Shown: one piece after another, positions 273 to 15,472 of the stretch
Numbering within the stretch: the first letter of the stretch is position 1
How the letters are laid out: every line of letters begins with the position of its first letter
Assembly: GCF_001306055.1 (NCBI RefSeq)
Contig: NZ_LGHJ01000007.1
Coordinates: forward strand, 60,001-92,000
DNA from: Bellilinea caldifistulae
GTDB lineage: Bacteria; Chloroflexota; Anaerolineae; Anaerolineales; Anaerolineaceae
DNA length: 32,000 nucleotides
Direction of reading: 5' to 3'
Translations under genes and position numbers: made by a program
Notes under the pieces: model-generated
Told to the model about the DNA's origin: nothing
Database searches by the model: none
The model's input: the letters and a program-made list of their open reading frames with translations, nothing else

Positions 273-2042
<1,770 letters not shown>

Positions 2043-2121
2043 TTAATATAAAATTCAGGGTAAGAAGCTATGCTCGTAATATTGGAACTCCATGTTAAGG
2101 CAGCTCTCACCCTGTTGATGG

Positions 2122-3114
2122 TCAATTGCAAGGGTTTATTTGTAAGGGGGAGAGTCGGAGGTACTCTGTTGTCCTCTTCTTTTGTAGAATGTCCAGAGCT
2201 ACTCGGTGCACTTGATCTTCACTCAGGTTGAGTTGTTCGGCAATTTCCTTTTCCGAATACCCATTTTCAACACCATACCAGATCAGATCCAATATCTCGA
2301 AGGGGAGACGGAAGAAAAATTCCTCTTGAGTGCTACCTGCGCTATAAGTATCCGAAGTGGGGGGTCTTTGTTGGATTTCGGATGGAATTCCCAGGTATTT
2401 TGCCAATTGATAGACCTGGCTCTTGAATAAATGAACAATGGGACTGAAATCCACACCGCCATCGCCGTATTTCACAAAAAATCCCAGGTCGTGCTCGTTT
2501 TTGTTCGCAGTACCTGCCACGGCGTAATTTTTTCTTTCAGCGTTATAGTAAAGCATTGCCATTCGGGTGCGCTGCTTGAAATTTGATGCCGCCATAATTT
2601 GCAAAAACTCTGCTGTTGGAATTCGTTTGGTTATTTCTACCCCTTCCGGAGAGACAACCGTCAAATAGAACACATTTAAAGTTTGTTCTTCTAATAAACT
2701 GCCCGGAAGGGTGATCTTCGATTTCCAATTTCGATCAAATTGAGGGACAATACGACGGATAGCTTCATCTCTCCTTTGATAACAGCCTGCGCCTTTCAAT
2801 GCTTCTGATATATCCTCAGTAATGGTATCAATTCCCAGCGAATTAGCCAATTCCATGGCTAGTTGTCTGCTGTCAGGGCTGGATTCCGATTCTGGTAAAA
2901 GTATCCCAAGCACTTTCTGGCTACCCAAAGCTCTCACACACAAAGCGGCAACAACCGATGAATCAATTCCTCCACTGATACCTACCACGACCCCACGGCG
3001 ATGCAGATCCTGGAAAACAGTATTCCTTATCCATCCAGAAATTCGATCTGCTTCCTGTCGCACATCCAATTGAAGCGAATTTTTTGAAAAAACGGGTTGA
3101 CTTGAATTCGTCAT
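2122..3114 (-). CDS. nadE: NAD+ synthetase (NadE) family N-type ATP pyrophosphatase, NH3-dependent type (no nitrilase domain)
   Basis: The ORF-track start at 3153 is a TTG that overlaps asnB. The ATG at 3114 is preceded by a GAGGAAGA SD and sits just past the asnB stop, so I prefer it (330 aa). PP-loop GISGGIDSSVVAALC; FVKYGDGGVDFSPIVHLFKSQVYQLAKYLGIP matches the NadE core. Confidence 0.75.
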   Translation of the reverse strand: MTNSSQPVFSKNSLQLDVRQEADRISGWIRNTVFQDLHRRGVVVGISGGIDSSVVAALCVRALGSQKVLGILLPESESSPDSRQLAMELANSLGIDTITEDISEALKGAGCYQRRDEAIRRIVPQFDRNWKSKITLPGSLLEEQTLNVFYLTVVSPEGVEITKRIPTAEFLQIMAASNFKQRTRMAMLYYNAERKNYAVAGTANKNEHDLGFFVKYGDGGVDFSPIVHLFKSQVYQLAKYLGIPSEIQQRPPTSDTYSAGSTQEEFFFRLPFEILDLIWYGVENGYSEKEIAEQLNLSEDQVHRVALDILQKKRTTEYLRLSPLQINPCN

Positions 3115-3133
3115 TCTTCCTCGAAGAGGCAAT

Positions 3134-5092
3134 TCAATTTTGGATTTTGTCAATTATCTTGATTGGAGCAGATGTTGTTTGATTTAGAGAACCATTCCGA
3201 AGAATGAATTGATCAAACAGGAGCAAAGTAGAAATAATCCCCACAACTACCATCTCCTCAATTTCACTAAGCTGATTTTCGTTGGAAGCTTTCAGGAATA
3301 GTTTTTTTACAGCAAGTTTATTAAACAAATCACTTTTTTGAAGATTTTCTTCACTCACCAGATCGGCCAGATATTCAGGTTGATGGTTACTAAAGAAAGA
3401 GGATTTTATTGGAGCGCGATATGGTTTCTTTTTGCGTTTCCAAATTTCTGGCGGTAGAAAACCACTGGCAAATTTTCTTAAGAGGTATTTTTCGTTCAAT
3501 CCTCTCAACTTATAGCCGTCGGGCAATCGGTTGCAAAACTCAACCAGGCGATAATCCAAAAACGGGAAACGCCCTTCTACGGAATGAGCCATTGCCGGTC
3601 GGTCACCTTGAGACGATAAAAGATAAGGGGACATAAAGGTGACAACTTCCAGATATTGAGCCTGTGCCAGGTGCGACCATTGTTCAAAATCAACCGGGAG
3701 ATGGATTTCATCGTAATTCATGCTTTCAGTAAGGGGATCCTTAAGAAACCTCAATGATCTTGCGGTATTTTCCCAGCGGATCAGGTGAGAATAGAATGGA
3801 GAGTCGGTTTCCATCAACTTACGCTGAAAAAATGCCATCAAGAAGTCAGCCGAGCCCCTTAATCGTGGTATGTCTGGATACAATTTTTTGAAAAGCAAAG
3901 GGCGAAAAGCAGATGCCGGATCTCTGGCAACAAATCTGCGAATTTTCATTTCCTTGAATATATCGTAGCCGGCAAGAAATTCATCCGCTCCCTCACCGGT
4001 TAGGACAACTTTGTACCCATGCTCCTGGACAAGCCTGGAAAGTAAAAACATCGGAGCCGGGGAGGTGCGTAATACAGGACTTTCGGTGTGCCAAATTACG
4101 TCTGGAAACACCCTTCCGATGTCTTCTGGTGTGCACTGAACAACCTGATGCCTTGTGCCAAGATAACGAGCCATTTCTTGTTGAAAATCACTCTCATTAA
4201 ATTCTTCGTTGCTAAACGCAATTGAAAAACTATCCAACGGGGTTTCAGTATATTTGCGGATAATTGCTGCAATGGTTGATGAGTCCAGGCCACCGCTCAA
4301 ATATGCTCCTACTGGCACATCTGCTCGAAGTCTGATCTGAGTAGCATCAATCAACAAATCAACAAATTGCTCAAACACCTCAGTCTCACCGATCAGGCTC
4401 TGATGATCCTCCGCTTGAAAGGATAATTGCCAGTACGGTTCGATAATCATTTTATTTTCCCGGTATAGAAGGAAATGGCCGGGCGGAATTTGTTTCACAT
4501 TTTCGAAGGACGTACGTGGTGGTTGCACTGCCCAATAGGTAAAAACTTGACTTAAGGCATGTTTGTCTAATTCGAGATGAAAACCTGGTACCGCAAGGAA
4601 GGATTTAATCTCAGACGCAAACATAAGAGTGGTTGAGTCACATGTATAAAATAAAGGGCGTATTCCAAGTCGATCCCTTGCGAGTAATAAGGTTTTTGTG
4701 CGGCTATCCCATATCGCAATTGCAAATTGACCATTCAAAAAATTCAGACAATCCGTTCCATACTCTTCATAAAGGTGCACAATTACTTCGGTATCGGTCT
4801 TCGTCTTGAAGCGATGTCCTTTTTGTTCAAGAGGAGGTCTTAATTCAACGTAATTAAAAATTTCCCCGTTGAAAACGATCCAAATGGTATCGTCTTCATT
4901 TGAAATTGGTTGTGACCCGCCGGCCAAATCTATGATGCTCAATCGCGCACTGGACAGACCCGTTTGTTCGTCCCGATAAATACCAAATTCATCTGGTCCG
5001 CGGTGATGAAGTGCCAGAATCATATTCTTCAACACCTCGAGAGAAATGTTGTTGGTTGGTTCATAATGGAATATTCCACTAATTCCGCACAT
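3134..5092 (-). CDS. asnB: Asparagine synthase (glutamine-hydrolysing) family amidotransferase/amidoligase
   Basis: 652 aa. N-terminus MCGISGIF carries the Cys2 Ntn-amidotransferase nucleophile; central PP-loop AYLSGGLDSSTIAA. Starts 6 nt after the ligase stop. Confidence 0.9.
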   Translation of the reverse strand: MCGISGIFHYEPTNNISLEVLKNMILALHHRGPDEFGIYRDEQTGLSSARLSIIDLAGGSQPISNEDDTIWIVFNGEIFNYVELRPPLEQKGHRFKTKTDTEVIVHLYEEYGTDCLNFLNGQFAIAIWDSRTKTLLLARDRLGIRPLFYTCDSTTLMFASEIKSFLAVPGFHLELDKHALSQVFTYWAVQPPRTSFENVKQIPPGHFLLYRENKMIIEPYWQLSFQAEDHQSLIGETEVFEQFVDLLIDATQIRLRADVPVGAYLSGGLDSSTIAAIIRKYTETPLDSFSIAFSNEEFNESDFQQEMARYLGTRHQVVQCTPEDIGRVFPDVIWHTESPVLRTSPAPMFLLSRLVQEHGYKVVLTGEGADEFLAGYDIFKEMKIRRFVARDPASAFRPLLFKKLYPDIPRLRGSADFLMAFFQRKLMETDSPFYSHLIRWENTARSLRFLKDPLTESMNYDEIHLPVDFEQWSHLAQAQYLEVVTFMSPYLLSSQGDRPAMAHSVEGRFPFLDYRLVEFCNRLPDGYKLRGLNEKYLLRKFASGFLPPEIWKRKKKPYRAPIKSSFFSNHQPEYLADLVSEENLQKSDLFNKLAVKKLFLKASNENQLSEIEEMVVVGIISTLLLFDQFILRNGSLNQTTSAPIKIIDKIQN

Positions 5093-5098
5093 GATTTT

Positions 5099-6655
5099 CT
5101 ATCGAAGCTCGGTCTTCTTTATTTTTCCGGATGATGTTTTTGGAAGTTCATCTACAAATTGAACAATTTTGGGAATCATAAAATCTTCGAGGTGGTTCCT
5201 ACAAAACCGAAGCACATCTGTTTCTGTAAGAGAAGAGTTGTTTTTAACAATGAACGCTTTTATGGCCTGTCCAAGCAGAGCATCTTCCACACCAATAACG
5301 GCAACTTCATGCACTCCCTCGATTTTATAAAGGACATTTTCGACTTCCTTAGGTGATACTTTTTCTCCGCGGCTTTTGATGACATCATCTTTGCGAGCGA
5401 CGAAATAAAAAAATCCTTCTTCGTCCATCTTGAAAAGGTCACCCGTGTAGCATAATCTTTCCCCGGGTATCCTCCCCGGCCGAAATCGTTGTGCAGTAAG
5501 TTCCTCATCCCCCCAATACCCACGCATGACATGCCTTCCGCGCACCACCAGTTCTCCAACCTCCCCAGCGCCTAGCCGATTTCCACGTTCGTCCTCGATC
5601 CAAACCTCAGTTCCGGGAATTGCAATCCCAACCGAATCGGGTTTCGTATCAAGATAGGAGGGGGGGAGATACAGGGTTCTTTTGGTTTCAGTTAAACCGT
5701 ACATTGAATACAATCGAACATGCGGAAAAGTATCTCGAATTTTCAAGATATGGGCGGGCGGAAGTGCTGCTGCTGTGTTGGTCATGTACCGAAGACTGGA
5801 TAAATCGTAATCATCCAAATCCATATTGACCAGCATGGAAAAAATGGTCGGAACACCCGGAAAACCGGTTACCTTCTCTTTTTCAATCAAGTTAAGGATC
5901 TGGGCAGGAAAACTGAAACCCTTTTCTAAAACCAAGCGCCCCCCAAAAGAAAAAACCATCAAAAGCTGATAGAGGCCGTAATCAAAGGACAAAGGCAGTA
6001 CATTGATCACGACATCATCTTCAGTATTCCCGATGTAAGAAGTAATGGAATTTACGGCAAAAATAATATTGCTATGATCCGACATTACACCCTTTGGCTC
6101 ACCCGTACTGCCAGAGGTGTAAATCAAACAGGCCAGGTCCAGGTCAATATTTCTGGCAGGGAGACGGGTAGGGGGGTAAGTTTTGAGAAATTGTTCCCAT
6201 GAGAAACATGCTGTGGTTGGTTCTGTGGTTGGTTGGTCGAGAAGCTCTCCTTCTTTAGCAATTACAACGAAGAATTTTATACTTGGGCAAGAAGCACGCA
6301 TTTCCTCAATTGGAATTTTCTGGTGAGGGGATACAACCAAGGCAGATACACCACAATTATTGAGGATATAAACCAATTTATCGGTTTTGGTGGTGGCGTT
6401 GATCACAACAAAGACCGCGTCACATTTTAAAATTGCAAAAATCCCAATCACCAATTCAACGCTATTTTGCATGAATAGCGCAACCCGATCTCCTCTTTGA
6501 ATTCCATTGAATCTCAGACCGTTTGCGATACGATTAGCGCGGTCTTCTATCTCGGCATAGGTGAGACGCTCATCCCCACATACAAGAGCCACTTTTTCAG
6601 GAATTCTATCCGCACTTTTTTCCAGAAATTCCTGAACCAACCGAAAGCAGGTCAT
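5099..6655 (-). CDS. AMP-forming adenylating enzyme (ANL superfamily acyl-CoA / acyl- or aminoacyl-carrier-protein ligase)
   Basis: 518 aa. Core motifs YTSGSTGEPKGV, YGLTET, YTGDL, RKDDVIKSRGEKVSPKEVE and PKTSSGKIKK. ATGA start/stop overlap with the upstream carrier-protein gene. Confidence 0.9.
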   Translation of the reverse strand: MTCFRLVQEFLEKSADRIPEKVALVCGDERLTYAEIEDRANRIANGLRFNGIQRGDRVALFMQNSVELVIGIFAILKCDAVFVVINATTKTDKLVYILNNCGVSALVVSPHQKIPIEEMRASCPSIKFFVVIAKEGELLDQPTTEPTTACFSWEQFLKTYPPTRLPARNIDLDLACLIYTSGSTGEPKGVMSDHSNIIFAVNSITSYIGNTEDDVVINVLPLSFDYGLYQLLMVFSFGGRLVLEKGFSFPAQILNLIEKEKVTGFPGVPTIFSMLVNMDLDDYDLSSLRYMTNTAAALPPAHILKIRDTFPHVRLYSMYGLTETKRTLYLPPSYLDTKPDSVGIAIPGTEVWIEDERGNRLGAGEVGELVVRGRHVMRGYWGDEELTAQRFRPGRIPGERLCYTGDLFKMDEEGFFYFVARKDDVIKSRGEKVSPKEVENVLYKIEGVHEVAVIGVEDALLGQAIKAFIVKNNSSLTETDVLRFCRNHLEDFMIPKIVQFVDELPKTSSGKIKKTELR

Positions 6656-6915
6656 TGAGAAACAACACCTTTCATCCGAAGGTAATTCGCCAGATTCCTA
6701 ACCGAATCGAAGTTGGCCGGAATAATTTCCCGATCCTCGACCCGAACCCCGAATGTCTCTTCGACATAAGCAACAATCTCCATGACGTTCATCGAGTCAA
6801 CAATACCATTTTCAAGGAATGAGGTCTCTTCAGAGTAAGGATATCCATCGTTTGTAAACAGAATGTTTTCCGCAATGTAGTCTTTGATCTTTTGTTCAAT
6901 AGGTTGATTCATCAT
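6652..6915 (-). CDS. Stand-alone acyl/peptidyl carrier protein
   Basis: The ORF track extends to 6996, overlapping the rSAM gene. ATGATG at 6915 has a GGGAG SD ~6 nt upstream, giving 87 aa. LENGIVDSMNVMEIVAYVEETFG is the carrier-protein helix II motif with the phosphopantetheinyl Ser (DSM). It is DltC-like in size and layout. Confidence 0.8.
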   Translation of the reverse strand: MMNQPIEQKIKDYIAENILFTNDGYPYSEETSFLENGIVDSMNVMEIVAYVEETFGVRVEDREIIPANFDSVRNLANYLRMKGVVSQ

Positions 6916-6946
6916 AAAACTCCCAACGATTGAGGTAGGATGATGC

Positions 6947-8602
6947 TTACGACTCGCTTTTCCCGGTTTGCCACTGGAAATGCTGCAGACCGACACTGAT
7001 CGCTGATTTCATAGTAGAAAAATCAGAGAAGACCATTTTCAGGTATGTCAAAATAGGGCCAGGTCGAAGTGCCCACTCCCGAAAAGCGCGTTTTTGCCAG
7101 TAAAGGAGTTTTTCAGCCGGCAAACCGGGATAATCCAACACGGTGCCTTTGTCCATATCCACCTGTTCCCAACGCGTTCCGGGGCGGAACCAATTTTCCC
7201 GAACGACTTCAAAGAAAAACGGCGTTCCAGGATAGGGTGCAGCCACATGAAACAAGGCGATATCCAGAGGAAGTTTTTTCGAAAACTCGATGGTTTGACG
7301 AATTGACTCTTCGGTTTCGGTTGGCAAACCTATAATGAAGTATCCCCAATTCTTGATGCCGGCTTTCCTGGCCCATGTAAGGGATCTCAGAGCAGTTTCC
7401 GGATAAGCACCCTTTCGTGCATGACGTAATACTTGCTCGCTGCCCGATTCTATTCCCCAGGTCATCAAGAAACATCCCGCTTTTGCCATCAGATTGAGCA
7501 TTTCCTCGTCCACGTAATCAACCCGGCTATTGCAAGTCCATTTCATGTTGATTTTGGCATCAATCATTGCTTTACAAATTCCGATAACCTGATCGCGATT
7601 TGCCGTGAACAAATCGGCATACATGTTCACGTTATTAATTCCCAGTTTTTTCAACACCCACAGTTCTTCAAGAACCTTTTCTGGGGAACGCAAACGAACG
7701 GTGTACTGATAACTCACATGCTTGATGCAGTAGATGCAACCAGCGGTACAGCCACGACTGGTGACAATAAAGGTAAAAGGTCCTTTCATCAAAGGCATGA
7801 CGTACTTTTTATAGGGCAACATTTCGTGTAGTGGAATCGGGAGATCGTCCAGATCCTTGATGAAGGGACGGTTTTTGTTTAATATGATCTCATCCCCCTT
7901 GCGCCAAACAATCCCCTTGATTTCATGCATATTGACGGTTCCGTCTGCATTCAGAGCAGGGCGGTATTCAGGATCGTGCTCATTAATCAATTTTTGTATG
8001 AGGGGAGGCCGTTCATCAATTTTCCCTTCTAGATGATCAATCAGGTCTCGAAGGGTCAAATCCGGTTCTCCGACCAGCCCAATATCCAGAGCGGGGTAGG
8101 GGCGCATTGTTTCTACGGGAATCGGTGTGATATGCGTCCCGAAAACCATGGTTGTCGCCCCTCTGGCTTTTGCAAGAAAAACACCGTACATGTCATTTTC
8201 AAGTGTTGGGGCGGTGAGTTGTGAAAGATAATACTTTGGCTGATATTTTGAGATCAGGTTAGCAAATTCTTTCCAGCCCATTCGTTCTGCATTCGCATCA
8301 ATAATTTGAACCTTATAGGTAGGCACGAGCAAAGCAGCCATCTGAGCGAGCGAAACTTGCGGCCACACCATGTTCTCTCTCGTTCGTCGGCCAACCCGAT
8401 GTTGAGTCCGAATCCACAAGCCACCATCTGGCGTTGGAGGATTGACCAGTAAAACATCTACAGCGTCTTTACCACGCGGCTGGCTTAATAGACCGTTACG
8501 CACGATGTCATCGGCGTTGGGGAATTTTGCCATTTTCAACGGAGCTACTCGATGTGCCCCCAGATTTTTGTATTTCATTTCCATTTGCGGCTTTTCGTTC
8601 AT
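6947..8602 (-). CDS. B12-binding-domain radical SAM enzyme (class B rSAM)
   Basis: 551 aa, ATG 8602 preceded by a GAGAGG SD. N-terminal Rossmann-like B12-binding-type region (DVLLVNPPTPDGG...IIDAN...). Radical SAM cluster motif SRGCTAGCIYC (CxxxCxxC). Confidence 0.85.
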   Translation of the reverse strand: MNEKPQMEMKYKNLGAHRVAPLKMAKFPNADDIVRNGLLSQPRGKDAVDVLLVNPPTPDGGLWIRTQHRVGRRTRENMVWPQVSLAQMAALLVPTYKVQIIDANAERMGWKEFANLISKYQPKYYLSQLTAPTLENDMYGVFLAKARGATTMVFGTHITPIPVETMRPYPALDIGLVGEPDLTLRDLIDHLEGKIDERPPLIQKLINEHDPEYRPALNADGTVNMHEIKGIVWRKGDEIILNKNRPFIKDLDDLPIPLHEMLPYKKYVMPLMKGPFTFIVTSRGCTAGCIYCIKHVSYQYTVRLRSPEKVLEELWVLKKLGINNVNMYADLFTANRDQVIGICKAMIDAKINMKWTCNSRVDYVDEEMLNLMAKAGCFLMTWGIESGSEQVLRHARKGAYPETALRSLTWARKAGIKNWGYFIIGLPTETEESIRQTIEFSKKLPLDIALFHVAAPYPGTPFFFEVVRENWFRPGTRWEQVDMDKGTVLDYPGLPAEKLLYWQKRAFREWALRPGPILTYLKMVFSDFSTMKSAISVGLQHFQWQTGKSES

Positions 8603-8646
8603 TTTTTTTACCTCTCTAAACCCGTAATAAGTTTGAAACCGAAAAA

Positions 8647-9852
8647 TTAACCATTCAAATCTTGACGGATAAGTAACTCGCGCTGACTAAGGTCTTCCAA
8701 GACCCGCATCAATGCCCAATAGAGAATAAGTTGAACACCAACAAGAATCATCATTGCGCTGCCAAGCAAGTACAACCAGAGTCTCTCAATTTCCCATCCA
8801 GAAATACCTAATGTCAGGCTAACGATACTGAGAACCAAACCGGCTAAAAAGGTTATGCTGCCTAATAAACCAAACCGGCTTTCCAGGGGCTTTTTAAAAA
8901 TCGGTTTACCAAACAACCCTTGCCGGATATTCTTTTTGTAAAAAAGGGACACCAGGTAATTCGACGTTGCACCGAGGGCAAAGAGTGCCACTCCGGTTAC
9001 TCCTGCAACCATCCCTGCAAACAAAGCGGCCACTCCCCATGGGCCAATCGTGGTATCCCCGGACAATCGAGCAACAATTAATCCGAAAATTGAGAGTAAT
9101 GCGAGGAAAACACCTGCCAGTCCCATGATCCCCAAAACCCGAACTGGGTTATAGGCCATTACTGTCCACACCATAGATTGAAGGAAAAGCAATCCATCCC
9201 GTATAACACTTAACTTGGATCGTCCTATCCGTTCGCTGTATGGGATAGGAATTTCACACATGCGAATACCTTCATGAACTGCTCGGGTGCTCATGACAGG
9301 CGTTAGATTTAACCCGTTTGGCAAAGGATAAATCTGGGTTAAGATTTCTCGTTTTACCACCCGCATTCCGCTTGCCGAGTCGGTAATTTTCTGCCATCCC
9401 AGCATGGTCAATAAACCAGCAAAGAAAATATTGCCCACTCGGCGGGTTGCTGGCATTTGACTTTGTTCGCCTGCCATTCGCGAACCGATGACTAAATCCG
9501 CGCCATTGAGAGCTTGTTCACAAAGCAAGGGGAAATATTCGGGCGGGTAGGTGCCGTCAGCATCTAAGAAACCAATGAGCTCACCTTTAGCTCTGGAAAA
9601 GCCGGTCTTTAATGCCCCGCCATAACCTTTGTTGACTTCATGTTTAATAATGACCACATTGTCATCTTGGTCCGCAATTTTCTGAGCAATAACGGCAGTG
9701 TTATCCTTTGAACCATCGTCAACCACCAAAAGCTCGAGATCATCTATGCCAACTTTTCGGAGAGCCGGTCGAATTGACAGAACTCTTTCCATGATTTCAG
9801 CAATACCATTTTCTTCATTATAAGCAGGAATAACAACGGATAAGGTGCACAC
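8647..9852 (-). CDS. Family 2 glycosyltransferase with C-terminal multi-TM anchor (polyprenyl-phosphate sugar synthase-like, GtrB/ArnC/DPM1 architecture)
   Basis: 401 aa, GTG start at 9852 with a GGTAAGAGG SD. GT-A motifs VVIPAYNEE, VVDDGSKDNT and FLDADGTYPP. The last ~150 aa are strongly hydrophobic, with about four TM-like segments. Confidence 0.8.
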   Translation of the reverse strand: MCTLSVVIPAYNEENGIAEIMERVLSIRPALRKVGIDDLELLVVDDGSKDNTAVIAQKIADQDDNVVIIKHEVNKGYGGALKTGFSRAKGELIGFLDADGTYPPEYFPLLCEQALNGADLVIGSRMAGEQSQMPATRRVGNIFFAGLLTMLGWQKITDSASGMRVVKREILTQIYPLPNGLNLTPVMSTRAVHEGIRMCEIPIPYSERIGRSKLSVIRDGLLFLQSMVWTVMAYNPVRVLGIMGLAGVFLALLSIFGLIVARLSGDTTIGPWGVAALFAGMVAGVTGVALFALGATSNYLVSLFYKKNIRQGLFGKPIFKKPLESRFGLLGSITFLAGLVLSIVSLTLGISGWEIERLWLYLLGSAMMILVGVQLILYWALMRVLEDLSQRELLIRQDLNG

Positions 9853-9866
9853 CTCTTACCATCCTT

Positions 9867-10643
9867 TCAAAAATAAACCTTTTTATCGGCGGATAATTTG
9901 ACTTCTCCACTCTCTCGAATGACACGGGCAGGAACACCGCCAACAACTGTATGGGCGGGAACATCCTTTGTAACAACTGCCCCCGCTGCGACAATAGCCC
10001 CCTTTTCAACGCGAACCCCGTCCGTGATAATTGCACCCGCACCTAGCCAGACATCATCCTCTATGGTGATTCCCTCCGCAGTAATTCCCTGATCTACAAA
10101 AGGTAATTCGGGATTGCTGAAAACATGATTGACCGCTAACAATTGTGTGAACGGTGAGGTGAACACGCGATCTCCAATGTTTACACCCCCTTGCCCTCGA
10201 ATAACACTGTATTCTCCGATAAGACAATTTTTTCCAATTTTTATTCCTGAGTTGGGTATTCCGCGAAAATTATAGACATGCAAGATGGCCCCATGCATTA
10301 CGATGGTGTTCTCGCCAATTTGAATTCCATTGGGGCAAGCATGAAGATAAGCCCCCTGGTCGAGGTAAACCCCCTGGCCGAGATGGATTTTGTCTGCAAA
10401 CCGCAAACGTACCCCATTTTCAATTGCCGCCAGACCATCCATGCGCATAATCAACCGATATAAAACCGCACGAAGTGCGATTCCGATAATTGTCGGCACC
10501 CAACCGACACTCAGGTATAAAAATTGTTCCAAAATATAGCGGAACGGATTTGAAGCCTGACGGCTCAAATAAAGACGGATTGAATTATTCTTTGAAGGGG
10601 TCAAATTTGAATGATGGTTTTTCAAAAAGGCATGCTCCGCCAT
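9867..10643 (-). CDS. Hexapeptide-repeat (left-handed beta-helix) acyl/acetyltransferase with N-terminal hydrophobic segment
   Basis: 258 aa, ATG 10643. Hexapeptide repeats [32 protein letters not shown] and [28 protein letters not shown]-terminal TM-like segment [22 protein letters not shown]. Confidence 0.8.
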
Positions 10644-10746
10644 TACGACACAGGATCGTAATGGCTATTGCAGTTATTACCCCTTGCCGGATGGTGTGTT
10701 ACCTCACACGCATACGGTAGGTTTTTTCGTGAAGAGATAAACCTTC

Positions 10747-11898
10747 TTACTTTTCGATTAAATGTGCAGCGGCCAAAATGGAGGGGGTTAATGAAGTTGC
10801 CATTTTTGAAACATAATCCAGGTCTTCTTTAGAGAATTCGCCACCTTGAGGGTGAACAAGGGTGATTGAACCGAGCACCCGATCGTTTACTGATAGCGGA
10901 ACAGAAACCGCAGATCGGCTCTTGGCAGGATCGCCATCCCAAGGCCTTCTCAACCACCGTTCATCTTTCGACGTATTACTTACCAGCGCTGGCTTGCGGT
11001 TCTTAATTACCCAACCTGCCAAACCGTGCTGGCTGATTTCAGCCAGTTGTTCCATTGGGGGGTTTGACACCTGACCTTCACGGACAGTCGCACCTGCAAT
11101 CACATTTCCCTTTTGATCCAGTAAAATCAGTGTTCCACTGCTTGCTCCAGTGCTACATAATGCAATTTGCAGCATGTAACCCAAACTATGTTCTTCTGTG
11201 ACAGAGGGAATCATTTTTACATCTGGATTTCCCTCCACATCTTCATTGCCGTGAATTGCGCTATCGAATAAAGATTCAGCCAGTGATTTTGGCTCTTTTA
11301 GAGGGGTATCAACCGGTTCAGAGAACTGAGAGACCGTAATTTCTGCCATCCTTAACAATGAATAACAGATGACATGTTCAATCGAAAGGTGCAGGTCCTC
11401 GATATGCTGGACATTCTGAGAAGGTACACGAATTTCCAGATTGGCAATTTTTCCAAGTTTTCCACCGTTGTAACCAGTCATACCTACGGTAAAAGCACCG
11501 ACCTTATTGGCTAGCTCAACCGCATGGATTACATTCTCAGAATTACCACTGGTTGAAATCCCAATGACGATATCATTGGGCTGAACAAAATTTCTTAATT
11601 GATCCACAAAAACATTCTCATATCCATGGTCATTTGCAAGGGCTGAAAAGATGGACATGTTATCGGACAAGCCAATCACCTTGAAACCGGGTAAATCAGG
11701 GAAGGCGGTATTTTTGGCCAGGTCACATACAAAGTGAGATGCGGTAGAAGCGCTTCCGCCATTACCCATGATGAAAATCTGCCGGCCGTTCAATCGCGCA
11801 TTGTGAAGAATATGCACCAATTGATCAATTTTTTCTGCAGGTAGTTTCTGAATTGTTTGATCTAACTCTGACATATATTCTCGAATGTACTCGATCAT
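10747..11898 (-). CDS. SIS-domain sugar-phosphate isomerase (GmhA / sedoheptulose-7-P isomerase-like) fused to a C-terminal GAF domain
   Basis: 383 aa, ATG 11898 with a GGAGGAGG SD. The N-terminal ~190 aa align by eye with GmhA (IFIMGNGGSASTASHFVCDLAKN, IGISTSGNSENVIHAVELA, LEIRVPS...IEDLHLSIEH). The C-terminal ~150 aa are GAF-like (GLAGWVIKNRKPALVSNTSKDERW, RSAVSVPLSVNDRVLGSITLVH, FSKEDLDYVSKMA). Confidence 0.75.
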   Translation of the reverse strand: MIEYIREYMSELDQTIQKLPAEKIDQLVHILHNARLNGRQIFIMGNGGSASTASHFVCDLAKNTAFPDLPGFKVIGLSDNMSIFSALANDHGYENVFVDQLRNFVQPNDIVIGISTSGNSENVIHAVELANKVGAFTVGMTGYNGGKLGKIANLEIRVPSQNVQHIEDLHLSIEHVICYSLLRMAEITVSQFSEPVDTPLKEPKSLAESLFDSAIHGNEDVEGNPDVKMIPSVTEEHSLGYMLQIALCSTGASSGTLILLDQKGNVIAGATVREGQVSNPPMEQLAEISQHGLAGWVIKNRKPALVSNTSKDERWLRRPWDGDPAKSRSAVSVPLSVNDRVLGSITLVHPQGGEFSKEDLDYVSKMATSLTPSILAAAHLIEK

Positions 11899-11933
11899 TT
11901 CAACCTCCTCCAGACAATGCAGCGTTCAGTCTG

Positions 11934-12908
11934 CTAGCGTCGGTAATTGAATATGGTTTTTGAACCATCCGGTTCAAGTCGAATGGGTACTTCGCGTAGA
12001 CCATTCAGCGAACTTCGTACCGCATCACGTTTTTCGTAAGGACAATACAGAAGTAAAAAACCACCTCCACCGGCTCCGGTCACCTTACCGCCTAATGCTC
12101 CGGCTTTGCGGGCAGTTTTGTAAATCTCCTCGATTTGACCGTTACTGATTTTGCTGGCGAGTTGTTTTTTGTATTGCCAGCTTTCGTGAAGTAGAGTCCC
12201 GATTACATCAATGTTTCCCTTTTCGAGTTCTTCTTTTGCAACATAAGCCAATTCTTTCAACTGACGTAAAGTTTTTTTATTTTCATGAATGTTATCTTGT
12301 TGTTCTGAAAGGATGCTTGCCGCTTGTCTTGTAGTACCGGTAAAGTACAACAGAAGGTTTTCATTCAAACGCGTCATTGAAACTTCATCCAACGGCAATT
12401 TATAATTACACACCTCACCGCTGTTTGAAAATTCAAAAAATCGCAATCCTCCGTAAGCAGCAATATACTGATCTTGCACTCCTATTGGTTTCTTCAGAAT
12501 GTCAATCTCAATTTCACAAGCCTCTCTGGCCAATTGTTCAGCATTGATGGAGCAATTAAGGTAAGTGTACATCGCGTGAAGAGCCCCAACAGTTACGGTA
12601 CTGGAAGAGCCAAGCCCTGAACCGGAAGGAATATCACCCATGGTAGTGATCTCCACCCCTTTGGTGATTCCAACTTTTCTCAGGGCTTCACGAATCAATT
12701 CATGTTGGAGGTCATTGATGTCTTCAACAATTTCAGTTCGTGTGTAACCAACGCGCAGAAAATCATCAAACCTGCGCTTTATGGTTACAAAAATGTATTT
12801 GTCAATCGCAGATGACAAAACACAACCTCCTTCTTCCATGAAGTAAGAAGGAAAATCCGTTCCCCCCCCAAAAAAACTGATTCGTAAGGGAGTTTGAACA
12901 ATAATCAA
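11934..12908 (-). CDS. GHMP-family sugar(-phosphate) kinase (HddA-like heptose-7-phosphate kinase class)
   Basis: 324 aa. TTG start at 12908 overlaps the epimerase TGA, with GGAG ~9 nt upstream. N-terminal [13 protein letters not shown] motif; GHMP motif [22 protein letters not shown]; C-terminal [14 protein letters not shown]. Confidence 0.8.
12862..12876 (-). repeat. Homopolymer pair T7-G8 (coding strand) at codons 11-16 of the GHMP kinase
   Basis: The plus strand reads C8 (12862-12869) followed by A7 (12870-12876). The coding strand is AGT TTT TTT GGG GGG GGA (S F F G G G). This is the longest G/C homopolymer I found in the window. Confidence 0.95.
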
Positions 12909-13837
12909 TTCACCAGCTCCGTTTGTCTGAAAAACTCGACCGTTTTACTGAGACCTTGCAGGAGTGAAGTCTTCGGTTTCCAGCCCGTTTCAGCCTGAAA
13001 TTTGGTACTATCCAGATAAATCCTTCGTGTTTCGCCCAACCTCGCAGGACCAAATTGAACCTCTTTTGTGTAATGGGTGATTACTTTCAGACCCTCAAAG
13101 ATTTGAATCACGTTAGTTGGCTGCCCTGTTCCAAGGTTGTATACATAGCCACCGGAATTTAAAGAGAGAGCAAGGCGATTGGCTTCAGCAACATCGTCCA
13201 CAAAAACAAAATCCCTCTCCTGCAATCCATCACCATGAATAGTAACCGCTTCATTGCGAGACATCTGGCCAGTAAATATGGCTACTACGCCGGCTTCACC
13301 TTTGGGATCCTGACGAGGACCATACACATTCGGGTAACGAAAAACGACATAATCCAATCCATACATCACGCGGTACATGTACAAATAAAGTTCAGTCATG
13401 TACTTGGTCGCACCATACTGGCAAATCGGCTGAATGGGATGTTCCTCGTCGCAAGGAAGATACTTTGGCTCGCCATAAACCGTTCCTCCAGAGGAAGCAT
13501 AAATGAATTGCCGTACATCATATTTACGAGCGCATTCCAACACATTCAGAGATCCCTTCACATTTACATCCGCATCATAGAGAGGGTCAGCGACAGACCG
13601 CCGTACATCCATCTGAGCCGCATGATGATTGACAACGTCAGGGCGCTCCTTCTCGAATATCTGGGAAAGGTTTGAACTGCGAATATCCAGCTGATAGAAA
13701 GTGGCTGCAGGATTGATGTTGGTGTATCTGCCGGTCACCAGATTGTCTACAATGACAACATCATGCCCATCTTGAAGGAGCAAGTCAACTACCGTTGACC
13801 CAATAAAACCAGCCCCGCCTGTTACAAGAATTTTCAT
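12905..13837 (-). CDS. NAD-dependent nucleotide-sugar epimerase/dehydratase (extended SDR, GalE-like)
   Basis: 310 aa. [14 protein letters not shown] Rossmann motif and catalytic YGATK (YxxxK). Stop overlaps the kinase start by 4 nt. Confidence 0.85.
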
Positions 13838-13851
13838 GATGGTTAGCCTTT

Positions 13852-15366
13852 CTAATATGCGCCGCGTTTGCTGAGTATAGCGGGTATGGTTTGGATGATC
13901 AACTGAATGTCCATCCAGATGTTCCAGTTGCGTATGTAATACATATCAAAACGTACCCGTTCTTGGTAACTGACATCCGAACGGCCCGAGACTTGCCATT
14001 TTCCGGTGATGCCGGGTTTTACAGTCAGCAGATTGATTCCCCATTTTTTATACTCTTCCAATTCAGGGGCTGTAATCATTCGTGGTCCAACCAGGGACAT
14101 CTCGTTTCTCAGAACATTAAACAATTGAGGAAGCTCGTCCAGACTGGTTTTTCTTAAAATCCGGCCTATCCGGGTAATTCGAGGATCGTCTTTGATTTTA
14201 TGGTATCTGACTAATTCCTCTTTTTTTTCTGGATACTGTTCTAAAACATCATCCCCATTGATGACCATGGTTCGAAATTTGAAGGCATCAAATTCTTTCC
14301 CATTTACTCCCAGAACACGCCTACGATGGATAACCGGGCCGGGAGAATCCAGTTTAATGGCTACTGCAATGAGTAGAAGCAGAGGGGATATCAATATGAG
14401 TAACGGGATAGACACCCCATAATCTAATGCAGCTTTTAGCACTTGTTCACTACCGGTCAATCTCACTTTGTTGACTTCCACAAGTGGGACCCACGCAAAT
14501 TCCCGAACGCTCAAACCTGTTGTGATGATCTCGTAAAGGCCGGAAGATATTCGCAATTTGGCTTTATCCGAGGTTCCGAATTTTTCAAAAATATCCAGTA
14601 ATTCTTCGCGGCTTAAGGCACTGCTGGTGAGAATCACTTCATCAATGCGATGCCTTTCGATCAAGTCCCCCAATTGTCGAATCTCTCCCAAGATTCTAAG
14701 TCCTTTATCGTTACCTGTTGGATTGTCGGTATTTGTGACAAAACCAAGCAGGCTCAATCCCGAATGACGAACATCGCTCAATTGTTGAGCCATTTCGGCA
14801 GATTCCTGGTTGTAACCTACAATTACAGCCCTTGATAAGAAGTAACCATAAGTTCTCAAGAAGTAAGCCACACGCCGGAGCAGAAATCTTCCCAACGCCG
14901 TAAAGAAAAATGCCGAAAGCCAAGCTATCAAAATCCAACCCCGCGCAAATACAATGCGAGGCTCAAAATAGCCAACTGCAATGACAATAATCATCGCAAG
15001 GGTATTTGCTTCAAACAGCAGATGATATTCTCGCACCCCGCCAAGTAAGTTCTCCCGTTTATACAGACCCCTCAGTAGAAAAACTGCCAGCCAGGTGGGT
15101 ATAATCAGTAAAATTAATCCTTCATAATAGTCAACAGATGTCAGGGCTCTTGGATCGAATATGGGCAAGGTCAACTCAAACCGAATTAAGTAAGCAAACC
15201 GGAGACCCAATCCAATATTCAAACCATCGCTGATCAACAATATCACACTAAACAGCAACCACTCCCAATAGCGTGAACGAGTTTTGGTAGCAGTAGTAGA
15301 TAATAAAGTCTTTTCACGGATTTGGTCTTTGGTTAATTCTTTTTCGGTCAGGTAAGAGGAACGCAT
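13852..15366 (-). CDS. Polyprenyl-phosphate glycosylphosphotransferase (large WbaP/EpsE-type priming sugar transferase)
   Basis: The ORF-track start at 15390 is GTG. The ATG at 15366 has an AAGGTGG SD 6 nt upstream, giving 504 aa. There are N-terminal TM helices and a central Rossmann-like region. The C-terminal bacterial sugar-transferase domain has PGPVIHRRRVLG, DELPQLFNVLRNEMSLVGPR and KPGITGKWQVSGRSD. Confidence 0.85.
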   Translation of the reverse strand: MRSSYLTEKELTKDQIREKTLLSTTATKTRSRYWEWLLFSVILLISDGLNIGLGLRFAYLIRFELTLPIFDPRALTSVDYYEGLILLIIPTWLAVFLLRGLYKRENLLGGVREYHLLFEANTLAMIIVIAVGYFEPRIVFARGWILIAWLSAFFFTALGRFLLRRVAYFLRTYGYFLSRAVIVGYNQESAEMAQQLSDVRHSGLSLLGFVTNTDNPTGNDKGLRILGEIRQLGDLIERHRIDEVILTSSALSREELLDIFEKFGTSDKAKLRISSGLYEIITTGLSVREFAWVPLVEVNKVRLTGSEQVLKAALDYGVSIPLLILISPLLLLIAVAIKLDSPGPVIHRRRVLGVNGKEFDAFKFRTMVINGDDVLEQYPEKKEELVRYHKIKDDPRITRIGRILRKTSLDELPQLFNVLRNEMSLVGPRMITAPELEEYKKWGINLLTVKPGITGKWQVSGRSDVSYQERVRFDMYYIRNWNIWMDIQLIIQTIPAILSKRGAY

Positions 15367-15472
15367 AAAGACCACCTTATCGAATTTCACATAAGCCGAT
15401 TTGGAGAAGTTCTAAAGGATTGATAAATTTCCAAAATTCGGCGAGATAATAAAATTAATAATCTTTATAAAA

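Follow-up and report, generated by a model that had tools for sequence, protein, structure and literature searches.

A conserved ACP-ligase-AsnB-NadE gene module and a separate radical SAM triad meet in a glycan locus of Bellilinea caldifistulae

We analysed a 32,000-nucleotide stretch of the Bellilinea caldifistulae genome (contig NZ_LGHJ01000007.1, positions 60,001 to 92,000; hereafter the window, whose own numbering is used unless a related locus is named), in which four minus-strand genes lie packed head to tail at 3134-8602. They encode a radical S-adenosylmethionine (SAM) enzyme, a stand-alone acyl carrier protein (ACP), an ANL adenylating ligase and an AsnB-type amidotransferase, and a first-pass annotation had taken them for one carrier-protein tailoring cassette. 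Comparison of about 170 related loci from genomes, plasmids and metagenomes, collected with the radical SAM, ligase and NadE-like proteins as seeds, showed that this boundary encloses one gene too many, that of the radical SAM enzyme, and one too few, that of a NadE-like enzyme following AsnB. ACP, ligase, AsnB and NadE-like enzyme (module B) are a functional unit without the radical SAM enzyme, which forms a unit of its own with a family 2 glycosyltransferase (GT2) and a hexapeptide-repeat acyltransferase (Hexa; together module A). By sequence, module B is the orthologue of the smb20651/smb20650 set of Sinorhizobium meliloti, an operon type that has been described and whose function is unsolved.

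Results

Four genuine genes in a co-directional string

The coordinates of the open reading frames (ORFs) bear out the strand, spacings and motifs given in the first-pass annotation. The stop codon of the radical SAM gene lies 31 nucleotides from the start of the ACP gene, whose ATG is preceded by a GGGAG Shine-Dalgarno sequence, the ACP and ligase genes share an ATGA overlap, and 6 nucleotides separate ligase and AsnB genes. For the NadE-like gene, the ATG at 3114, which has a GAGGA Shine-Dalgarno sequence and lies 19 nucleotides past the AsnB stop, is the likelier start; the TTG at 3153 is also possible. Pfam and NCBIfam agree with the four families as first named, with Pfam scores of 95 bits for Radical_SAM (PF04055), 31.7 bits for PP-binding (PF00550), 322 bits for AMP-binding (together with AMP-binding_C) and 315 bits for Asn_synthase (together with GATase_7). 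The named catalytic residues are likewise kept in orthologues, namely the three cysteines of the radical SAM motif SRGCxAGCxYC (77/77), the DS site of the ACP (17/17) and Cys2 and SGGxDSS of AsnB (each 19/19), as are SGGIDS of the NadE-like protein (19/19) and the ANL core motifs of the ligase.

The genes from 273 to 15390 form a single co-directional string, and because this string is conserved in the close relatives L001-L003, the arrangement of the four genes in the window is not due to chance. In a promoter and terminator scan, which returned fewer sites than in shuffled sequence, promoter-like sites near gene starts on the minus strand were found only upstream of 15390, and no terminator was found between modules A and B. 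A single operon across both modules is plausible; the scan is otherwise uninformative.

The radical SAM gene travels with GT2 and Hexa

A scan of one genome per species with the radical SAM protein yielded 292 relatives, the best 80 of which (L001-L080; 72-97% identity) were kept. Nearly all of these come from Anaerolineae, with Bellilinea and other Anaerolineae the closest. Window proteins were mapped onto these loci and all ORFs were clustered; 67 loci had enough upstream DNA and 53 had at least 7 kb downstream, and the co-occurrence counts given here describe gene linkage within loci. GT2 adjoins the radical SAM gene in 60 of the 67 loci, and Hexa stands beside this pair in 54, with or without module B. 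Hexa, GT2 and the radical SAM enzyme form a unit. Downstream of the radical SAM gene, ligase and AsnB were present in 12 of the 53 loci, usually with a gene for a BNR-repeat protein of about 890 residues in between, and module B was missing from the remaining 41.

The usual gene order in these loci is NusG-like, phosphoglycosyl transferase, epimerase, HddA-like kinase, GmhA, GmhB (on the opposite strand), Hexa, GT2, radical SAM, Wzy_C/TPR protein, the large BNR-repeat protein and then variable genes; a BNR protein was found downstream of the radical SAM gene in 31/53 loci and a Wzy-like protein in 26/53. Loci that contain an ACP-ligase-AsnB-NadE block generally have it after the BNR gene, and the block directly touches the radical SAM gene only in the B. 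caldifistulae group (L001-L003). No BNR gene was found in the window, and the single match of the Wzy query falls inside the radical SAM gene and looks spurious. Radical SAM and ACP genes thus abut in the window because the Wzy-like and BNR genes that normally lie between them are absent, and their direct adjacency is specific to the Bellilinea lineage.

Across the 80 species-representative genomes, the triad occurs in almost all and sits in a heptose-containing glycan locus. One or two large BNR proteins together with a Wzy_C/TPR membrane protein follow the radical SAM gene in L004, L006, L007, L009, L012, L019 and others. These BNR proteins have a signal peptide, a Pro/Thr-rich linker, a C-terminal transmembrane segment and a basic tail, and could be the glycosylated or anchored surface proteins of the locus.

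ACP, ligase, AsnB and NadE-like genes stay together without the radical SAM gene

Ligase homologues at 64-67% identity to the window protein sit in ACP-ligase-AsnB-NadE blocks (L081-L083). The block lies beside GT4/PGT/PMT_2 genes in L081 and beside a gene for a Condensation-PP-binding-Thioesterase (C-T-TE) protein in L083, and in both cases no radical SAM gene was found within 10 kb. In L082, a radical SAM gene is three genes away, separated from module B by a Wzy-like gene, a gene for a protein of 486 residues and a gene for a BNR protein of 920 residues. A metagenome scan with the ligase alignment gave 80 loci with identities of 31-64%, and of 68% where the match was partial. We then scored the 17 loci in which the ligase is at least 41% identical and flanked by at least 4 kb on both sides, ten of them from metagenomes: ACP was present in 17, AsnB in 15, NadE in 15 and all three in 14, and the radical SAM gene in one (0/10 among the metagenome loci). 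None of 28 ligase homologues below 41% identity had AsnB or NadE alongside. L126 carries both modules in one gene string, as do L082 and the 12 of 53 radical SAM loci mentioned above.

A tblastn search of plasmids with the NadE-like protein matched 117 rhizobial, Azospirillum and related replicons at 46-52% identity. All six alphaproteobacterial replicons examined carry the four module B genes and none carries the radical SAM gene; here, gene content was taken from tblastn and record annotation, since a simple ORF caller had mis-called high-GC ORFs on the opposite strand. Three gene orders were observed, AsnB-ACP-ligase-NadE in S. meliloti pSymB, Shinella and Rhizobium, NadE-AsnB-ligase-ACP in Mesorhizobium, and ACP-ligase-AsnB-NadE in two Azospirillum replicons. 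The spacing is tight throughout these examples: in L081 and L082, AsnB and the NadE-like ORF, as called, directly adjoin or overlap, nadE overlaps the ligase gene in rhizobial replicons, and asnB overlaps the ligase gene in Mesorhizobium. The rhizobial copies lie on accessory replicons.

ACP, ligase, AsnB and NadE are thus conserved as a set although their order is shuffled, which is the classical mark of a functional unit, and this unit does not include the radical SAM enzyme. This module spans Chloroflexota, Alphaproteobacteria and many metagenomes. What survives of the cassette first proposed is that the stand-alone ligase, the carrier protein and AsnB are a genuine, evolutionarily conserved unit; the membership of the radical SAM enzyme, present in one of the 17 well-flanked loci, does not. 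The first-pass annotation had also suggested co-occurrence as a check on its four-gene model. This model fails the check in loci from three independent seeds (radical SAM, ligase and NadE), on whose counts a cassette containing the radical SAM gene was rejected, and the same check passes for the different quartet of ACP, ligase, AsnB and NadE.

Two of these loci deserve separate mention. In pSymB of S. meliloti ml46 (L084, 5168-7103), a frameshift divides the module's asnB, which is missing from the annotation table, and the other three genes are intact. In L083, a C-T-TE protein of 871 residues (2043-4658) and an acyl-CoA dehydrogenase precede the module, which gives it a natural-product-like, non-glycan context; the contig is binned as Coleofasciculus, a bin taxonomy that is doubtful.

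Module B corresponds to the smb20651 set of S. meliloti

The statement that the gene combination maps onto no characterised pathway has to be revised. On pSymB, asnB-smb20651-smb20650-nadE comprises the same four families, adjacent and co-directional as they are at 2122-6915 of the window, and near full-length identities of 47-51% (AsnB), 37% (ACP), 52% (ligase) and 48% (NadE) mark the proteins as orthologues. The pSymB ligase has the same D/Y/T/K/R pocket as the window ligase. The two sets differ in order (AsnB-ACP-ligase-NadE on pSymB, ACP-ligase-AsnB-NadE in the window), and the rhizobial copy lies on a megaplasmid next to minCDE and not in a glycan operon, with no acyltransferase-3 (AT3) or radical SAM gene nearby.

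smb20650 is cotranscribed with the ACP gene smb20651, and their co-expression with AcpS in E. coli leads to acylated ACP, but SMb20650 cannot substitute for FadD with oleate (PMC7232532). SMb20651 is counted among the ACPs whose function "need further investigation" (PMC5686131). In our literature searches, nothing was found on the neighbouring SMb locus tags beyond PMC7232532, nothing that joins asparagine synthetase, ACP, NAD synthetase and exopolysaccharide, and only an unrelated match that joins exosortase, ACP, asparagine synthase and radical SAM. Judged by its sequence, the window ligase would load the phosphopantetheinylated ACP in the same manner, the biochemistry being that of the S. 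meliloti pair. Ramos-Vega and colleagues are said to have described the operon asnB-smb20651-smb20650-nadE in 2009, together with C12 and C18 acyl forms of the ACP in E. coli.

Family profiles place AsnB and the NadE-like enzyme and exclude several namesakes

AsnB scores 525.8 bits against TIGR01536 (cutoff 267.1) and has both Cys2 and SGGxDS, which places it in that family. It is also colinear with TIGR03108 over 1-625 of the 628 profile positions, yet its 453.3 bits stay below the cutoff of 816.9, and membership was rejected. Among solved structures, it comes closest to TsnB9 (213 bits), followed by E. coli AsnB (182 bits). The GEGxDE motif (E348) aligns with E. coli AsnB; residues 381-496 of the query, about 115 in all, remain unaligned, and the alignment to E. 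coli AsnB ends at its residue 361 and resumes at 389. The E. coli residues skipped in this way, about 362-388, presumably are the aspartate-binding region. The NadE-like protein passes the NCBIfam NAD synthase cutoff (NF002048, 465.3 versus 313 bits; PF02540, 199 bits), and the strict association of its gene with those for ACP, ligase and AsnB speaks for a specialised role.

For the ACP, a DltC identity was rejected (22.2 bits, cutoff 68), and the best NCBIfam match, ACP_for_OlsHI, is weak (47.7 versus 130 bits); the OlsH/OlsI pathway, which includes a GH3-like enzyme (PMC12493201), has no counterpart in the window. The ligase is likewise not a TIGR03098 member, as it scores 478.6 bits against a cutoff of 592.35 and no TIGR03099 gene is adjacent in the window. 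TIGR03098 is nevertheless its best NCBIfam match, and TIGR03108, likewise from the XrtA/PEP-CTERM set, is the second-best of AsnB; true TIGR03098 ligases are 31-35% identical to the window ligase (about 33% for the one in L156). This set would follow the same idea, with an Asp-type unit prepared for exopolysaccharide. In contrast to module B, it lacks NadE, and in the window no decarboxylase or PEP-CTERM export gene was seen. In DltA/DltC and in the ACP and ligase of the V. cholerae O1 rfb locus, too, a stand-alone ANL enzyme loads a small carrier whose cargo reaches a surface polymer. Amidating enzymes are not part of either system, the 25 best families shown for the ligase do not include DltA, and no DltB/DltD-type partners were found in the window.

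The ligase pocket points to an aspartate-type substrate

Compared with solved structures, the ligase matches nonribosomal peptide synthetase (NRPS) adenylation domains at about 300 bits and acyl-CoA ligases at about 210 bits. For its pocket segment (residues 221-355), VinN is the best match in the PDB (E 1.5e-20; next 7.8e-9). VinN takes 3-methylaspartate or L-Asp as a beta-amino acid and uses D230 for the amino group, F231 and S299 are bulky residues thought to position the substrate, and K330/R331 lie in a beta13-beta14 loop that is one residue shorter than in alpha-amino-acid adenylation domains (PMC11253843). D230, F231, S299, K330 and R331 of VinN correspond to D225, Y226, T294, K325 and R326 of the window ligase in an alignment that is ungapped through the loop: each of the five contact residues is either identical or a conservative substitution, and the loop is shortened in the same way. 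Among 56 module ligases, R326 is found in 56, K325 in 48, T294 in 45 and D225 in 41, and ordinary ANL ligases from the same scan, which served as controls, have PxFH and no Arg. A subgroup from Azospirillum and Shinella has co-varying G225, A294 and T/I325, which suggests a related acid without the amino group.

As in module B, a stand-alone adenylation enzyme is paired with a stand-alone ACP in the VinN/VinL/VinO system, which loads beta-amino-acid starter units for macrolactams of the vicenistatin type, and the free alpha-carboxylate of the tethered unit is then processed, as we propose below for module B. Overall, the resemblance between VinN and the window ligase is modest (233 bits), and the context of module B is mostly surface-glycan genes. 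Unlike the Vin system, the window has no pyridoxal phosphate (PLP) decarboxylase, no VinM/VinK-type enzymes and no polyketide synthase (PKS), but two PP-loop amidating enzymes; decarboxylase and PKS were absent from the window ORFs by Pfam and NCBIfam at 273-12908 and by reading of translations elsewhere.

The sister family leads in the same direction. Bona fide TIGR03098 ligases have the D, Y, R and short loop in common with the window ligase, and in L156 (9926-15037) such a ligase (609.8 bits) is followed by a TIGR03099 PLP decarboxylase and XrtA export genes. By analogy, this arrangement is the VinN/VinO logic inside an exopolysaccharide locus, and the XrtA ligase/decarboxylase pair may make a beta-alanyl-type unit by the VinN/VinO route. 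From the VinN-like pocket residues and this TIGR03098/TIGR03099 parallel, we infer that the window ligase attaches its substrate, an Asp-type acid, to the ACP by the distal carboxyl. Whereas the Vin and XrtA systems lose the free alpha-carboxylate through decarboxylation, here it would be amidated.

Module A enzymes resemble those acting on lipid-linked and amino sugars

The radical SAM protein has two domains, a Rossmann-like N-domain and the CxxxCxxC core. Its description as carrying a B12-binding-like N-domain is supported at the level of the fold but not at the Pfam threshold, since PF02310 reaches only 17.4 bits against 32.1 (E 0.004). The predicted structure is mediocre (pLDDT 61.6) and was used for domain architecture only; its N-domain is a Rossmann-like beta/alpha fold, and its best structural matches are AprD4 followed by the cobalamin radical SAM enzymes TsrM, MgmA, OxsB, CysS and TokK. 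AprD4, the nearest solved relative, has a domain of this kind and does not bind cobalamin (PMC12931638), so the domain is no guide to cofactor use in the window enzyme.

The best family of the enzyme is HpnJ (TIGR03471; 204.7 bits versus a cutoff of 577.6, over residues 219-546 only). HpnJ membership was rejected because of this score and because neither the window nor the related loci have hopanoid genes. The clade itself is narrow: a handful of 50%-identity representatives exceed 40% identity, followed at 31-37% by proteins of about 470 residues that we took as HpnJ-type relatives by their size. HpnJ has been proposed to contract the glucosamine ring of a glycolipid (PMC9204698). AprD4, the best solved relative by sequence and fold, is a sugar diol dehydratase in aminoglycoside 3'-deoxygenation; both relatives have amino-sugar rings as substrates. 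In its pathway, HpnJ comes after a GT2 and an N-acetyl-handling enzyme, comparable to the composition of module A. Here the resemblance to the Hpn enzymes ends, as the window GT2 is ArnC/GtrB-like and not HpnI-like and the partner is an acyltransferase and not a deacetylase. Details of the HpnI/HpnK/HpnJ pathway, which leads to a hopanoid cyclitol ether, are reportedly given in Schmerk et al. 2015.

GT2 scores 125.6 bits against PF00535, and its AglJ, ArnC and dolichol-phosphate mannose (DPM)-synthase-type NCBIfam matches are all below cutoff; its best PDB match is ArnC over residues 4-316, with dolichol-phosphate mannose synthase and GtrB also close. Hexa has WcaF-, WbbJ- and Mac-like NCBIfam matches. 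By analogy with these relatives, the radical SAM enzyme probably acts by radical chemistry on a polyprenyl-phosphate-linked sugar. Methylation, deoxygenation and rearrangement are candidate reactions.

Variable partners of module B

The acyltransferase-3 proposed at the left edge of the window is real and 85% identical to the AT3 of L001. Most module B loci of Anaerolineae have an AT3 gene after NadE or after Sat, and the L002 orthologue matches Pfam Acyl_transf_3. AT3 and the hexapeptide enzyme had both been put forward for the transfer step, and this neighbourhood favours AT3, which would be the likeliest transferase in Anaerolineae, over Hexa. The Azospirillum locus reads deacetylase-ACP-ligase-AsnB-NadE-GNAT. 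The Sat/CysC gene between NadE and AT3 was found only in Bellilinea-like loci (5 loci) and is not part of the conserved module; its insertion hints at glycan sulfation, and no sulfotransferase was seen in the window.

A PrmC/HemK-like N-methyltransferase gene lies in or beside module B in 9 loci, with TIGR03534 scores of 196-206 bits around the cutoff of 199. Known enzymes of this type act on amide or amine nitrogen, and the gene suggests N-methylation of an amide or amine in the product. In three module loci we found a WbuX-type N-acetyl-sugar amidotransferase, an amidine-forming PP-loop enzyme. In L091 its gene stands where NadE would be expected, and in L111 WbuX is present and NadE absent.

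Discussion

Our data slightly favour a reading in which two independent units abut in Bellilinea and operate as follows. In module A, the ArnC/GtrB-like GT2 would make a polyprenyl-phosphate sugar, the HpnJ/AprD4-like radical SAM enzyme would alter its ring, and the hexapeptide transferase would acylate it. In module B, the VinN-like ligase would adenylate the distal (beta) carboxyl of an acid, most likely one of the aspartate type, and pass this acid as a thioester to the ACP, leaving an amino group and a free carboxylate. The glutamine-dependent AsnB and the ammonia-type NadE-like enzyme would then turn carboxylates into carboxamides, either the tethered alpha-carboxylate, to give an isoasparaginyl-type unit, or a uronic acid of the acceptor sugar, or both. 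The last step would place the unit on a glycan of the cell surface, with AT3 as the candidate transferase in Anaerolineae and a GNAT-like protein as the candidate in loci of the Azospirillum type. Amidation of the alpha-carboxylate is supported by the conserved Cys2 and PP-loop of AsnB, its colinearity with TIGR03108 and its roughly 115 unaligned residues. Either AsnB or the NadE-like enzyme may have the acceptor sugar as its substrate, given the uronamide precedent of WbpS (see below) and the deacetylase and GNAT of Azospirillum.

A more specific version, which we offer tentatively and consider rather doubtful, is that module B is a widespread decoration of surface glycans or glycan-anchored proteins. 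In this version, Asp is activated at its beta-carboxyl on the ACP, AsnB converts it to isoasparaginyl and the NadE-like enzyme performs a second ATP-dependent nitrogen insertion, with the same modification made by the S. meliloti smb20651 set. This second insertion could be another amidation, or the conversion of an amide to an amidine as WbuX-type enzymes do. We know of no such second nitrogen insertion described for the NAD synthetase family.

Several points weigh against the two-unit reading as proposed. The main contrary datum is that the acyl groups observed by Ramos-Vega and colleagues in 2009 were reportedly C12 and C18 fatty acids, a misfit with an Asp-like substrate. An Asp-like unit offers one free carboxylate to two amidating enzymes, of which the NadE-like one passes the cutoff for NAD synthases. 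The Azospirillum/Shinella subgroup indicates that an amino group is not universal among the substrates. The only experiments on the orthologous pair report an "acylated" ACP in E. coli (PMC7232532). The glycan-locus setting first proposed for the cassette often applies to module B, but the loci in S. meliloti, Rhizobium and L083 are not obviously glycan loci. With regard to the radical SAM enzyme, the structural model is of low confidence, its gene lies 31 nucleotides from that of the ACP in one operon in Bellilinea, and CysS and TokK are cobalamin-type enzymes that act on pantetheine-bound substrates, so that a lineage-specific link between radical SAM enzyme and ACP is possible. The independence of the two units was scored at the level of loci.

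Among the alternatives, the one that survives best, though we rate it as clearly the less likely account, is that AsnB acts like WbpS and converts a uronic acid on the glycan to a uronamide, with ACP and ligase separately supplying an N- or O-acyl group and the NadE-like enzyme amidating a remaining carboxylate or being unrelated. In the Wbp/Vim linking-sugar pathway of Porphyromonas and Tannerella (WbpS, VimE, VimA), an AsnB homologue makes a sugar-acid carboxamide: WbpS (PGN_1234) has been genetically shown to be required for glucuronamide formation, the GNAT/FemAB-like VimA adds an amino acid to the deacetylated sugar, and in PEP-CTERM loci, genes of the VimA/VimE kind accompany AsnBs of the TIGR03108 type (PMC7468200). 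The window AsnB is colinear with TIGR03108. The deacetylase and GNAT at the two ends of the Azospirillum module recall the deacetylase and aminoacyl transferase of this pathway. The window, however, has neither, only AT3, no uronic-acid pathway gene was identified in it, and the Wbp/Vim paper names no ACP or adenylating ligase as amino-acid donor (PMC7468200). Moreover, in S. meliloti, Rhizobium, Mesorhizobium and L083, where the module has no glycan genes beside it, AsnB is still strictly linked to ACP and ligase, and a shared small substrate fits this better than an AsnB acting on the glycan.

We regard it as unlikely that module B handles fatty acids, with the ligase a medium- or long-chain acyl-ACP synthetase and the product a lipid or lipo-amide such as an N-acyl amide or a lipidated glycan. 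The acylated ACP obtained with SMb20650 and holo-SMb20651 in E. coli (PMC7232532) and the acyl-CoA dehydrogenase and C-T-TE NRPS-like protein beside the module in L083 are consistent with this possibility. It is countered by the inability of SMb20650 to replace FadD in oleate activation (PMC7232532), by a VinN-like pocket with invariant Arg and, mostly, Asp, which fatty-acid ligases of the same scan lack, and by the higher scores of NRPS adenylation domains over acyl-CoA ligases. In addition, a saturated fatty acyl-ACP has no carboxylate on which two amidating enzymes could act.

We consider it very unlikely that radical SAM enzyme, ACP, ligase and AsnB make up a single pathway, with methylation or rearrangement of the ACP-bound acyl or aminoacyl group by a class B radical SAM enzyme as the step that precedes its amidation and attachment to the glycan. 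The tight packing in the window and L001-L003, the gene strings holding both sets (12/53 radical SAM loci, L082 and L126) and the pantetheinylated substrates of CysS and TokK speak for it. Against this stand the 16 of 17 well-flanked module loci and six proteobacterial replicons without the radical SAM gene, the 41 of 53 radical SAM loci without module B, and the BNR gene that usually separates the two when both occur; the invariant neighbours of the radical SAM gene are GT2 and Hexa, and its nearest relatives, HpnJ and AprD4, act on sugars. That AsnB and NadE are a housekeeping asparagine synthetase and NAD synthetase merely syntenic with ACP and ligase can practically be set aside: both pass their family cutoffs, TIGR01536 and NF002048, but the four genes keep together across phyla in at least three orders with tight or overlapping spacing, a WbuX-type enzyme holds the NadE position in L091 and occurs without NadE in L111, the rhizobial copies are on accessory replicons, and the AsnB region expected to bind aspartate does not align to E. 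coli AsnB.

For experiments, the division into two modules means that reconstitution of radical SAM enzyme, ACP, ligase and AsnB would mix the enzymes of two pathways and leave out NadE. Because module B belongs to an operon type already described in S. meliloti, its novelty is limited; it connects Anaerolineae with SMb20651 of S. meliloti, a carrier protein that has awaited a function since 2009, through a gene set that is conserved across phyla and common in metagenomes. The VinN-like pocket, the invariant Arg and the XrtA parallel provide a concrete, testable hypothesis of an Asp-type substrate. Should the substrate of the NadE-like enzyme indeed be bound to a carrier or a glycan, an entire "NAD synthase" subfamily of NCBIfam would be mis-annotated. 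The Hexa-GT2-radical SAM triad is a separate lead of comparable interest, as it marks a probable radical modification of a lipid-linked sugar in cell envelopes of which little is understood.

Gene content around the two modules

The features of the window and of related loci are collected in Table 1. The genes upstream of module A (10747-15390), which would belong to the same operon and serve glycan precursor synthesis and initiation, are syntenic in 33-41 of the 80 radical SAM loci. The window shares its fusion of a SIS isomerase with a C-terminal GAF domain with 17 related loci; in other Anaerolineae the SIS protein stands without GAF and is accompanied by a divergently transcribed GmhB-like HAD phosphatase, which is absent from the window. 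For the glycosylphosphotransferase, a Bac_transf domain was detected only on the L081 homologue, which is 33% identical to the window protein.

Table 1 Features of modules A and B, of flanking genes and of module-associated genes in related loci
Feature	Position	Strand	Remarks
AT3, N-terminal part of an acyltransferase-3 membrane acyltransferase	3-260	minus	runs off the window; tblastn
Sat/CysC, bifunctional sulfate adenylyltransferase/adenosine 5'-phosphosulfate (APS) kinase (3'-phosphoadenosine 5'-phosphosulfate (PAPS) synthesis)	273-2027	minus	NF004040 864.8 bits, cutoff 669
NadE-like ammonia-type PP-loop amidating enzyme (SGGIDSS)	2122-3114	minus	fourth member of module B
AsnB-type glutamine-dependent amidotransferase, long XrtA-amidotransferase-like architecture	3134-5092	minus	652 residues; module B
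Ligase, stand-alone ANL adenylating enzyme	5099-6655	minus	518 residues; VinN-like pocket; module B
ACP	6652-6915	minus	87 residues; DS phosphopantetheine site S41; module B
Radical SAM enzyme	6947-8602	minus	551 residues; module A
GT2 polyprenyl-phosphate glycosyltransferase, ArnC/DPM-synthase/GtrB-like	8647-9852	minus	C-terminal membrane segments; module A
Hexa, hexapeptide-repeat acyltransferase	9867-10643	minus	hydrophobic N-terminal segment; PF00132; module A
GmhA-GAF fusion (phosphoheptose isomerase, SIS)	10747-11898	minus	Pfam/NCBIfam
HddA-like GHMP kinase	11934-12908	minus	Pfam/NCBIfam
NAD-dependent epimerase	12905-13837	minus	reading of translation, no profile scan
Polyprenyl glycosylphosphotransferase	13852-15390	minus	reading of translation, no profile scan
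PrmC/HemK-like genes in related loci	L082 11559-12560; L096 11536-12366		also L087, L118, L121, L123, L125, L136, L141
WbuX-type genes in related loci	L091 3984-5024; L111 12834-13877; L094 9595-10605		

Elsewhere in the window, an ORF of 583 residues with a P-loop-like GDTGAGKSE motif lies at 20719-22470, between citrate synthase and proB.

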